A DNA stretch of 64,000 bases from Eledone cirrhosa. Its lineage: Eukaryota. Of this stretch, positions 29,801 through 35,800 are shown in pieces. A program made the position numbers and the translations under genes. The notes beneath the pieces were generated by a model. It was not told where the DNA came from. It worked only from the letters and a program-made list of their open reading frames with translations, and searched no databases. The stretch spans positions 620,001 through 684,000 of the forward strand of contig OZ024750.1 of assembly GCA_964016885.1 (NCBI GenBank). The letters are read 5' to 3'. Position 1 is the first letter of the stretch, and the number at the start of each line of letters is the position of its first letter.

Positions 29801-32800
29801 AAATGTTTGGGGCTTTACAACTTAACACAGGACCTCATTTGTCTTAAACCCGGCCCCGCGTATGTGGTTCTCGTACGATGATTAGGTGAATATAGATAGA
29901 TATGGTATCGTGATGAGTGTACAGTAGAGTTTTAAAGTTGTGACACACGTGTTGTGTGTCTGTTATACTTAGGAGGGTCATGCTGCCAATAACAAAACAC
30001 GCACCTGTTGGGTTTCAATTCAACTTAATTTATTGTTATAATAAACTGGAGTGAAACCCAACAGGTGCGTGTTTTGTTATTGACAACATGACCCTCCCAA
30101 AGTATAACAATATCTGTTTCAACACACGTTTTTAGATAAAAGATCTTGTAAAACAAATACAAAAACGATATATATATATATATAGAGAGAGAGAGAGATG
30201 ACTGTGGTTAAGGAGTTCGAATCGCAACTATGTATGCGTGGGCTTTACTATAGGATTGTGCGTGATTTGGTAGACGGAAAAGCCACATAAATTGAACCCA
30301 GGACATTACAACTCAACACACTAACCACCAGGCCATTACTAATTCTTTTTCTATAACACTTAAATCTATTTTTAATGTTCTCTTTCTTTTTTTCATGCTT
30401 GGCTGGGTCTGTAGTAGGTTTACAGCCCACCACCCCGGTCTAGCCAATATCCTAAAATATGATCTCAACACTTTATAGCTTCCTCCGTCGCACTTTTCTT
30501 ACACTTATAAATAATCAAGACACACACATACATACAATATATATATATATATATATAGCGTGTGTCTGTCTACACACACACGCACACGCGCGCGCGGTGA
30601 GAGTAGAAGTACAGATTAAAAATTTAAACAAACAATTTGTTTCCAACCTATTTCAGGAACAAAATTCTGTGTGTATGTATACACATGTGTGTATGTATAC
30701 ACATACATGTATGTATACACATACATGTATGTATGTGTATACATCATTTTAAAACTAAGACGGGATTCCAAATTCTAGCTGTCGTCTCGGAATAACAACA
30801 AAAGTAGGGTAAACTCAACAGAGCAGGTATGTTGTTTGTAGGGGGGGGGGGGGGGTATTAACTTACAGGTGAGAGAAGGTATGAGAAAACACGACAAGGC
30901 TATACAGGAGATATCGTAGTTGAGCACAAACAAGGGAAGAGGTGGGGGTAGATAGTAGAGAGACCATGGGGGGGGGGGAACAGATGTTTATTTAGTGAGA
31001 AACAAACATCGTTGGAGAGATAAAGAATAAAAAAAGAAGAATTGTGAGAAAGGTCACATATCTGAGCAACAGGGGTCAGTCTAGATCAGAGCAACAAGGG
31101 GACAATTGCCCTAGATTCTAGGGGATCGATTACATTGCTAGAAATAACTACCCCCCCCCCCCCCACCATACCGCACTCACATCGTCTTAAAAAAAGGAAG
31201 TTAATGTATTTATTTCATTTGATCAATTTAAACGTCCGTATAGAGCTGGTAAGCCATGACAGACTAGGAAAGGTATCTCCCCCACCATCCTCCGGGGAAA
31301 CACCTCTATTCTGTCCGGCGGGGCCACGAGGACCCCGATAGTGAGCAGTGACAGTAGGAGTTTGGTTCTTCTGTGTTCGAACCTGGTGTGTATATATATA
31401 TATATATATATATATAATATATATGTGTGTGTGTATGTAGACAAGGGAGAACGAGTCTTTGCCATCCTAATTGTTTTCCTTGTTATAAGGTAATTATAGA
31501 AGTATTACTTTCTTATAATTAAGAAATAAAGAAAAGAAATAAAGATGTAATGATCACGGTTGGAACGCTTTTGAACAATGAGTTCGGTCATGGTTGACCT
31601 GTAATTAAACAACTGAGGGCAATAAACTGACCGTTTCAGAGTATTCAAAAAAATCTCTTCATTTATCATTCTTAATTTCTCTTTACTAGTTTTCAACAGG
31701 AAGAAAACGAAAATAAATATAAATAATAAAATGTTTATAACCCAGAAAAAATTCCCGAACTGAATGAAAAGATATTTTAGTGTGAGAAATGTTACATAGC
31801 TCTGTCGCTACAATAATCACTGTGAAATTCACTCAAGTAAACAACTTGATAGAAGAAGTGAAGTATTACTTGTCCTCCATACTTTCAGTAAAACACAATA
31901 AGTACAATATTTTGGCGGTAGTTAAACAAACTGTGAAGAAATGAAATAAAATCGATATGAGACAGTCTCGAGTTGAACTTTACAGGTTGGATTAAGATCA
32001 ATGAAAGAAGGGTTTTCAGAATGTCCTGATCTGCCCTTTATGATCCCAAGGGTGGAGGGCATTTATCTATTTACTAACTTACCGGTTATGTAAAAAAAAT
32101 GGAAAGATTCTTTTACAAAACCGATAAAGAACTTTTATATTTGAGCTTGAAATAATAAATCGAAAATACCGCATCAGATTTGCTGGATTGATTACATATA
32201 ATACACATTAAGGTTAGGGGCTCCATCGTCGGATCGTGTTATACCTGAGCAATATTTAAAAATCATTTTAGTTCTTGTAAGGTCTTTTTAATGGAGCATT
32301 ATTTAACAAAGGAAAAATTATGCTGGAAGGTTTTTAGATAAATATAAACATTTAAAAACAGTTTTGTATTATGAAACCAAGGGACGTTTGGTATCAAAAG
32401 GTTTAAGAAACCAACATCAAATGTTTTTCTTCATATTTATTATTCCTTGTTTCATGAAAATAATTCACACAAAACCTTTCTTTTACAGCTACCATTACCA
32501 CCATTCCAGTCACTGAAGAAATTCTACCCTGGGTATAAACAACAAGGTGGTAGATTCAACAAGATTCATCTATTAACGTTGATAGGATGTAATAAATCGT
32601 GCCAGAGTAAACTATTGCACGACACAAGTGCATTACGCCTGTCCTACGCCCTCAACCAGGTTGGAGGTGTCCACTCTCTTGGAAACACACTTATTCAACT
32701 GTCAACATATGGCCAGGACAGTGTTGGTGGTACTGACAATAACCAATATATCTTTCACCCCATAGCTTACGGGCCATATCTGGCAGATAAATACGGTTAT

Positions 32801-35800
32801 CCAAATGTGTCCCAGTTACATGCCACAGATCCAATACAGACAATGAAGAAATTCTATGGGAAACAGGGGATACTGAGAATTATAACATATACTAAACAAC
32901 AAAACATGCCTAAAGGACACGTTGCATTGTGGGATTGTACACATTTCCACCAATCAAAAAACTGGTTGGTCAGTCATGAATTATTTACATTGGAATTCTG
33001 GGAATCTCCAGGTAAGACAATAAAGTTGTTAAACTTAGTTAACAATTAGTTCTACATTACAATAAGCCTGAGTAAACATGGCTTCTCGTTTAGATGGTCG
33101 TTCAACCTGCTAGAAATAGCACCCAAATCACATTTGCATGCATGGTTCTCCTGTAACTCCTGAAGGAGTCGTAGAGGGGCCATATTGACATACAGCATTT
33201 CTAGGGATTTTTTAAATGTCCTGGAGCTCATCTCCTCTGCAGGTCTGAATACAGCAACTTCTTCCTTTCAGGGTTGTTAAAATAAAGAAGCCGTCGATGG
33301 CAGTGGGTTAGCAGAAGTATTGGAGATTCAGAGAAGGAACTTTACAGTATTTGTGCTGACTCTTTGTATTCTGAGATCAAATACCACTGTCACCTACTTC
33401 TGTTGTGGACTTTAACACCACTATTTGACCCTTTGGTACCTTTAGTAGAGTCCATTCTGTTGCAAACATACTGACCAGTTCTCTGGTTTGAGAATAATTT
33501 CTTCTCTCCTTCCTACCAGTCTCATAGGCCCTTCCCTCCCTGACTAAACCATAAAAAAAAAAAGATTAACAAATAAATACAGTTTTGTCATTGGAACTGT
33601 AGCAGTGGAGATTTCTGGTGTTCTTGGTCCTAGTACTACCTCCCTAATCACTGCTATCAGGGCCACCCAAATGTGTAAAGCCCAGTGAGTTGGAATGGCT
33701 GTTTCAATGTATCTCCCTAACTATCCTCCTGGGACCACAATGTGCAGCTTGCACCTGAGGTTCTCTTGCCTGGGCTTGTATTATTGGGGTAGCAATGCTA
33801 TAGGGTGCCGATATCTACATCTGACGATACATACTTATCTAAATGCCTCCCCAGATTATTTAATACATGCTTAAAATAAATTCAAATTGTTTTAAATTTC
33901 AACTTTTCTAATGTAATTTTTGTTTCTATTTTTATCAGACTCCAGCTGCAACTTAACAGAAGATAACTATAAATGGCAAGATTATTACCAGAAAGCCGAT
34001 CCAGATGATATTGGCACAAAAAATGCTAAATCTCTAAGACACAAGGCTCATAATAGACACAAAGGAAGCCAACGCTACCAACATCTTCTACGATTAGTTA
34101 AAAGTAAACGACGGTCAAATTCAAAACACCAAAAAACTTTAGTAAGTTGAGTTGGGAGAGAATAAAGTTAATTAATTTGGCAGAAATCCATGACAAGTAT
34201 TTCAGAAACTGCAACATTGCCACATTAATGAAAGCAGAGCACCAAATATACTATTAAACTACTACTACGTAGTAAGTATTGTTTCATACTAATGTTCATT
34301 TTAGTTTGTGGCAATTGATGTCTTTAACCCTTTAGCATTTAAACCAGTCATATCCAGCCAGAATTCTCTCACCTTTTTCTCTTTAAACTGGCTGTAAACT
34401 GGCCACTCATATTGATGTTAAGGTATTGATCTCAAAATATCATAGATTCGATATTATGTGAGGTAAAGCCTTTACGATGAAAATAATATAGTAAATAGAG
34501 TAAAGTAAATACTAAAGGGTTAAGATGAGTAGATTAAGAAGAAAAAATAATAAATTTGCTACTAAATACCTTAAACAAGAGAAAACTTTTAAAACTCTTC
34601 CTGACATTCACTAATCTATATTTCAATAACTGTACAGAAGTGTTATCTGTGTCACATGAACATTATGGTGTGTCAAAAATGGGAGAGGAGGGCAAATGTT
34701 CTAAAATGCTTTAATTCATATCAGAAATCAGTTCTGTCAACAATTTTGTCTCTCAATATATATCTCTGTGTGTGTATACATAAATATATGTGTATATATA
34801 TATAATCCACAAATATAACTTTGTAAAAGTTTGGTGAAGGCAGGAATATTAGTTATTCCATGTATACCATATAAATGATATAATGGTTTGTTAATATGTC
34901 AAGAAGTCATTTCTCTGTAATAATCTACTTTAGTTTTCATTGGTTACTGAGAGACAAAAACTAAGATTGTTTCAGTACCAAACATTTTGGTAAAACATTA
35001 AGGAATAATTCTTCTGCCTAACACATCAGGAGATCTTGCTGTAGAGAAATACTTAAATGATTAATTCTCCTTGGGTCCAGTGAATAAACTAAATGACATT
35101 TAAAATTGATAACCAAACACACACACCAAATTGACAGGATGTCCCCCCAAAAAGTATACATACTTTGATTACCTGTACAGGCAATATTGTATACATTTTT
35201 GGGGCGACACCAAATTTATATGAAGGATGACTAAATATGTGTCCCGATTTGATCCCGGAGTCCCAAAGGATTAACTATCTAAAGATTATCAATAATCTTT
35301 GCAATCATGACTGCAATAGGAAATATAGCCATGTGGTAAATGTTTTCTATTTGTAATATAATAAAACTATTCTATAACCTTGAATTTTGTTGTTGTTGTT
35401 AATCTGGTAATGAAAGGGTTAAAGACTGTCTTTCATTAAAAATATGGTAATGAAGGGTTAAAGTGGCAGCATGGTAAGGTGAATATGATTGTTTCAAATA
35501 TAAGAGTAACACATGACTAGAAAGTAAACCTGTGATGAAATACAAATGTAAAATGAACTGAGAAATTCTGGGTAGATGATGAGAGAGAGAGGGTACATGA
35601 CTGTTGAGAGAGTGTGACAGAGAGAGAGGGTACAGAGAGAGAGGGTACATGAGAGAGTGTGACAGAGAGAGAGGGTACATGAGAGAGTGTGACAGAGAGA
35701 GGAGTACATGATGAGGGTGTGTGCCAGAGAGAGAGAGAGAGAGAGAGAGTGTGCGCACACAGGACTCAGGTGAACCACTAACAATCAGCAGTCAGGTCTG

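Follow-up and report, generated by a model that had tools for sequence, protein, structure and literature searches.

Tae4 amidases and their relatives

In the T6SS amidase effector StTae4 the catalytic His is oriented by an Asp eleven residues downstream (His+11), and the D137A substitution abolishes Tae4 toxicity (PMC3695027); Ssp1 is described as using an Asp at His+2 for the same purpose (PMC3852654). Domesticated T6SS amidases are so far known as borrowed antibacterial enzymes. The closest described animal proteins, Nematostella nvDae4 and 'Dae4-like', are presented in PMC8713801 as secreted and Tae4-derived, nvDae4 being an active amidase with Cys63. The same source, citing Chou 2015, records that the catalytic Cys is kept in only one of the two Nematostella dae4 genes. 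Probes in its supplement (NTCAIRLS for Dae4 and GHVDL for Dae4-like) represent, when read by eye, canonical motifs.

The octopus protein described here is also animal and Tae4-derived, but it has Ser in place of the catalytic Cys and belongs to a mollusc subtype whose motifs (DTSALR / GHVALWDC / FHQ) differ from those of the Nematostella probes. It is about 21% identical to the Tae4 effectors (StTae4, EcTae4 and Ssp1; PF14113; PDB 4hfl, 4j30 and 4bi3), from which it differs in having Ser for Cys, Gln for the triad Asp and changed cleft residues; its gene adds animal introns, a leader peptide, an extra Cys pair and a basic tail. Loss of the Cys in a dae4 is already on record, since it has been reported for the Nematostella paralogue, and the novelty for dae genes that the initial annotation foresaw is reduced to that extent. 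A search of the open-access literature found nothing on a lophotrochozoan Tae4 clade or its Ser; sequences from molluscs or annelids may already figure in Chou 2015.

Catalytically altered relatives are known elsewhere. Mycobacterial RipD (Rv1566c), a member of another NlpC/P60 subfamily, has like the octopus protein lost catalytic residues and carries a C-terminal tail (of low complexity in RipD). Its NlpC/P60 domain still binds peptidoglycan according to PMC12067865, so that binding is shown for RipD and only predicted for the octopus protein. Plasmodium SERA5 and the sponge silicateins share with the octopus protein a Ser at the catalytic Cys site of a papain-like fold and a retained His, but they belong to the C1 papain family rather than to NlpC/P60. 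They bracket the two possible outcomes: SERA5 is a natural Ser-bearing pseudoprotease without enzymatic activity, and silicateins need their Ser (both as reported in PMC4671257).

Structure of the gene

Table 1. Features of the Tae4-fold gene (positions refer to the window, that is, the whole 64,000-nucleotide stretch of DNA that was analysed)
Feature	Position	Strand	Description
Exon 1, coding part	28360..28440	+	ATG + 27 codons; GT donor at end, phase 0
Exon 2	32489..33011	+	Entire Tae4-fold domain; 174 codons + one base
Cys61-x3-Cys65 (GCNKSC)	32588..32602	+	Pair present in cephalopod homologues, not family-conserved
Ser74	32627..32629	+	AGT; position of Tae4 catalytic Cys44; immediately before predicted helix
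His171	32918..32920	+	CAC; equivalent to Tae4 His126
Cys177	32936..32938	+	WDC motif; in 100/101 homologues; conserved in whole lophotrochozoan clade
Gln182	32951..32953	+	CAA; His+11, site of Salmonella Tae4 triad Asp137 by ungapped count
Intron 2-3	33012..33938	+	Phase 1, GT..AG, 927 bases
Exon 3	33939..34150	+	Cys205 (33947-33949), linker, basic His/Lys/Arg-rich tail, stop

The predicted protein of 271 amino acids (Table 1) is encoded by three exons. Exon 1 was placed by tblastn with the N-terminus of an Octopus bimaculoides homologue (P0002; 73% identity over 30 amino acids); judged by eye, its leader, like those of full-length homologues, is hydrophobic and resembles a signal peptide. The second intron is missing from a contig of run X2, in which the 927 bases are skipped between GT and AG, as in a spliced transcript; a contig of run X12, from another species, is joined in the same way. 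Eight of ten coding loci compared have this phase-1 intron at the same position. The gene lies in a eukaryotic genome, contains introns and is transcribed, as the definition of a dae gene asks. The 66-residue C-terminal tail has a pI of 10.2, and His/Lys/Arg-rich tails recur among homologues. In the 3.0-Gb genome the protein and the Pfam family each matched once, in both cases at the present locus, and no second, Cys-bearing Tae4 copy was found. Both introns flanking exon 2 contain high-copy repeats (window positions 32314-32410 and 33090-33770, of very high contig depth).

The exon 2 domain scores 37.5 bits against Pfam PF14113 (cut-off 27), its AF2 model has a pLDDT of 94, and Foldseek and VIA both match it to the Tae4-type NlpC/P60 fold. 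Alignment with Salmonella Tae4 chains places D-T-S-A-L-R-L-S on N-A-C-P-I-R-M-S and G-H-V-A-L-W on G-H-V-T-L-W. The initial annotation, which had put a Ser at the Cys site of Tae4 and in one open frame with the His, is borne out on both points. The protein has Ser74 where Tae4 has its catalytic Cys and keeps the catalytic His (His171); the Cys-His dyad of the assayed antibacterial Daes is not retained. It is a Tae4 by fold and a non-member by its catalytic residues.

The Ser codon is not a misassembly: AGT is kept in contigs of runs X1 (possibly the source sample) and X2, which carry the same organism label and belong to the same study, and in contigs of runs X5 and X13, from another species, which differ at neighbouring positions 32624, 32626 and 32635. 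That A-to-I editing of AGT would yield Gly, as had been pointed out, agrees with the genetic code; none of the contigs compared lists an A>G at 32627, the contigs giving the majority letter only.

Conservation among molluscs

A homologue search returned 107 sequences, the named ones coming from cephalopods, gastropods, bivalves and a chiton. Octopods are the closest named relatives, at 90% and 83% identity, and identity across mollusc classes is 60-66%. The nucleophile column is covered by 104 of 108 sequences (the window's and the 107), with Ser in 94, Thr in 10 and Cys in none. In the same 108, the His column has His in 101, Gln in one (a truncated row) and gaps in six. Six longer, bivalve-type homologues also have Ser and no Cys. 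Within molluscs Thr has arisen separately at least twice, in a cephalopod branch and in a bivalve paralogue branch. Paired copies with neighbouring locus numbers occur in Mercenaria, Mactra and Dreissena (P0044/P0088, P0056/P0085 and P0051/P0090); these are probably tandem duplicates, and the divergent copy often carries Thr.

At ten coding loci the nucleophile codon is AGY (Ser) in six, TCC (Ser) in two and ACT (Thr) in one, and the remaining locus (L009) has Ala. With serine codons of both AGY and TCN types and a change that is ancient, it is misleading to describe the Ser as one base away from Cys. The orthologues are not evolving neutrally: pN is below pS in all 45 pairs of the ten coding loci, dN/dS is 0.21 for L003/L004 (the sole unsaturated pair), and comparison with another cephalopod-like species gives 27, 10 and 3 differences at third, first and second codon positions, respectively, among the 40 listed of 68. 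No close prokaryote relative was found in 185,579 genomes, which yielded a single 19-residue match.

The wider family

Searching 1.84 billion representatives with a profile yielded 107 matches, and a second alignment search 31. Of the 141 domain rows, all but P0156 were assigned to groups (140 rows), the labels resting on the tree. The trees are quick builds from which both trait columns had been removed. Named members outside the molluscs are the annelids Owenia and Capitella, the brachiopod Lingula, the nemerteans Tubulanus and Lineus, and the coral Montipora. Molluscs form one branch with the other 19 sampled clade members (SH-aLRT 96 and 95; 100 for molluscs alone).

Nucleophile and His states sort with these groups. 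Molluscs (n=32) have Ser/His in 25 rows, Thr/His in five and a gap with His in two. Among non-mollusc members of the clade (n=35) there are 20 Ala/His (Owenia and Capitella among them), five Ser/Arg (including Tubulanus), three Ser/His (including Lineus), single Lys/Tyr, Gly/His and Asp/His rows, and four that are gapped. No lophotrochozoan clade member (mollusc, annelid, brachiopod or nemertean) has Cys at the nucleophile site. The coral-type group (n=17) has Cys and lacks the His throughout; a third group (n=5) has Asp, likewise without His; the canonical Tae4-like rows (n=51) are Cys/His in 48. Cys and His do not occur together in any of the 89 rows of the three non-canonical groups, which have in common an N-terminal YPG..GG and an F/M-H-Q motif. 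The lophotrochozoan clade has kept the fold under purifying selection without the catalytic Cys, apparently since before molluscs, annelids, brachiopods and nemerteans split.

Several observations concern the more distant groups. Five coral-type proteins (P0136, P0245, P0247, P0250 [Montipora capricornis] and P0272 [M. foliosa]) have a leader and a Tae4-like domain joined to Hint (PF01079, E about 1e-44). All 17 coral-type rows have a second Cys in place of the Gly before the His site, and the Cys pair might close the site by a disulfide. The third group (P0139, P0140, P0143, P0146 and P0163) has Ser or Val at the His site and an M-H/Y-Q motif. In one protein of canonical type, P0201, the nucleophile position is Ser and both His and Asp are retained, and there is a leader as well as a C-terminal extension; its Cys-to-Ser change is apparently independent.

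The three non-canonical groups are united with SH-aLRT 86 in one tree and below 80 in the other. It is conceivable, if unlikely, that a single Tae4 gene, acquired before the cnidarian/bilaterian split, lost its Cys-His dyad and gave rise to a new class of secreted non-enzymatic ligand, basic-tailed in lophotrochozoans and, in corals, Hint-fused and likely self-processing. Were this so, the coral fusion would have a dead cell-wall hydrolase in the place that the signalling domain occupies in Hedgehog.

A putative ligand-binding function

The reading that we tentatively favour is that this conserved animal gene, with a Tae4 fold and Ser for the catalytic Cys, encodes a secreted, dead pseudo-amidase that still binds its ligand, most likely a bacterial cell-wall peptide. 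Horizontal transfer would have preceded the divergence of molluscs, annelids, brachiopods and nemerteans. The exon 1 leader would direct secretion, the retained cleft would hold the peptidoglycan stem peptide, and the cationic tail would stick to anionic surfaces (the bacterial envelope, mucus), so that the protein would tag or trap bacteria. Given a non-catalytic protein, a bacterial ligand is slightly favoured. The cell wall of bacteria is the best single guess because it is the ancestral ligand and because of the RipD precedent, the immune role of nvDae4 and the recurrence of basic tails. Such a protein would suggest that horizontally acquired toxins can meet another fate, that of being reused as binders. 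It would also offer a single-domain, easily expressed candidate for an apparently unstudied immune or extracellular protein of cephalopods and farmed bivalves.

A close rival, and a distinctly possible one, is a secreted non-catalytic protein with a non-bacterial ligand in matrix, mucus or signalling, its cleft remodelled for a host peptide or glycan and its basic tail serving matrix retention. The evidence for non-catalysis applies to it equally. The cleft has indeed been remodelled: relative to canonical Tae4, molluscs have Asp for the Asn before the nucleophile and His for the Arg of Y-x-x-R-V, have lost the Trp before A-x-G-H, and share a conserved insertion of ~10 residues close to the hairpin that folds over the site. 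These changes may have made the cleft unsuitable for peptidoglycan. A gene that is strongly conserved, present in few copies and 60-66% identical between classes would look more like a housekeeping or structural gene than like a fast-evolving immune effector, and the coral-type relatives fuse their His-less Tae4-like domain to Hint in the architecture of a secreted autoprocessing signal. Against a host ligand stand the lack of any known host partner, the uneven support for common origin with the coral group, and the one animal Dae4 with assay data, which is antibacterial and immune-induced, although of the canonical Cys/His type.

Catalytic competence

The preferred reading as a dead pseudo-amidase depends on the state of the active site. 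A catalytic dyad is expected to be retained or lost jointly. Here relatives have lost the two residues independently of each other, and the triad Asp has disappeared, which supports the non-catalytic branch of the initial annotation's interpretation; its alternative branch, a Ser-His hydrolase, is weakened. The role of peptidoglycan-binding sensor or opsonin that it suggested is a conjecture. By sequence register (not coordinates), His+2 is Ala and His+11 is Gln in the octopus protein, leaving no acid to orient the His. Canonical rows have an acid at one or the other position in 35 of 50 cases; the 67 lophotrochozoan rows have Asp in none and Glu in five. The Gln at His+11 looks structural, because it is also kept in groups that lack the His. 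Ser and Thr are favoured as helix-capping residues; at position 74 they would be kept as a small residue of that kind, and the His would be kept as part of a strand or of the cleft wall.

No substitute Cys is evident. The cysteines of GCNKSC, proposed earlier as candidates, are not conserved (the first is present in 39 of 102 homologues). Only one Cys of the domain, Cys177, is close to invariant. It sits at the end of the predicted strand that also holds the His, six residues beyond that His and so probably not next to it, and is likely paired in a disulfide with Cys205, a residue found again downstream of the intron in most full-length homologues.

Cys-to-Ser replacement abolishes the activity of clan CA/CD proteases, and this, taken with the contrasting cases of SERA5 and the silicateins (all in PMC4671257), is why the octopus protein is rated as quite probably, rather than certainly, non-catalytic. 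That the mollusc protein might instead be catalytically active, as a Ser-His(-Gln/Glu) hydrolase built on an NlpC/P60 scaffold, with peptidoglycan or some other amide or ester as substrate, is improbable. A hydroxyl residue and His do occur together in all 30 mollusc rows that cover both columns, His+11 offers a Gln or Glu that could orient the His, NlpC/P60 enzymes vary in their third catalytic residue, and in silicateins a papain scaffold supports an active Ser enzyme. However, Thr is tolerated in at least two branches, close relatives carry Ala/His and Ser/Arg, the Gln persists where His is missing, and engineered Cys-to-Ser enzymes lose activity. Moreover, Ser and His are not conserved together clade-wide, as would be silicatein-like; the pairing of Ser or Thr with His is confined to molluscs. 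If active, the mollusc form would represent a naturally occurring serine hydrolase with an NlpC/P60 scaffold, and the Ser/His, Thr/His, Ala/His and Ser/Arg proteins are natural variants usable as controls.

A misassembly, contaminating bacterial DNA or a decaying pseudogene, which the single base between AGT and TGT might suggest, has next to no likelihood in view of AGT in four runs, introns and splicing, the absence of Cys from 104 sequences, purifying selection and the lack of a close prokaryote relative in the 185,579 genomes.

Other features of the window

Two open frames on the minus strand (7685-8200 and 11217-11639) contain HGDFSDLNI and VIDF motifs and are, by eye, of hydroxylysine-kinase / aminoglycoside-phosphotransferase type; the first has no Pfam or PDB match. 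A plus-strand frame at 61953-62270 with EGLFRKTGS and ASVLKTFLKELPE motifs has the appearance of a RhoGAP exon, and segments 687-2658 (+) and 20115-21968 (-) appear on inspection to be fragments of LINE-type reverse transcriptase.
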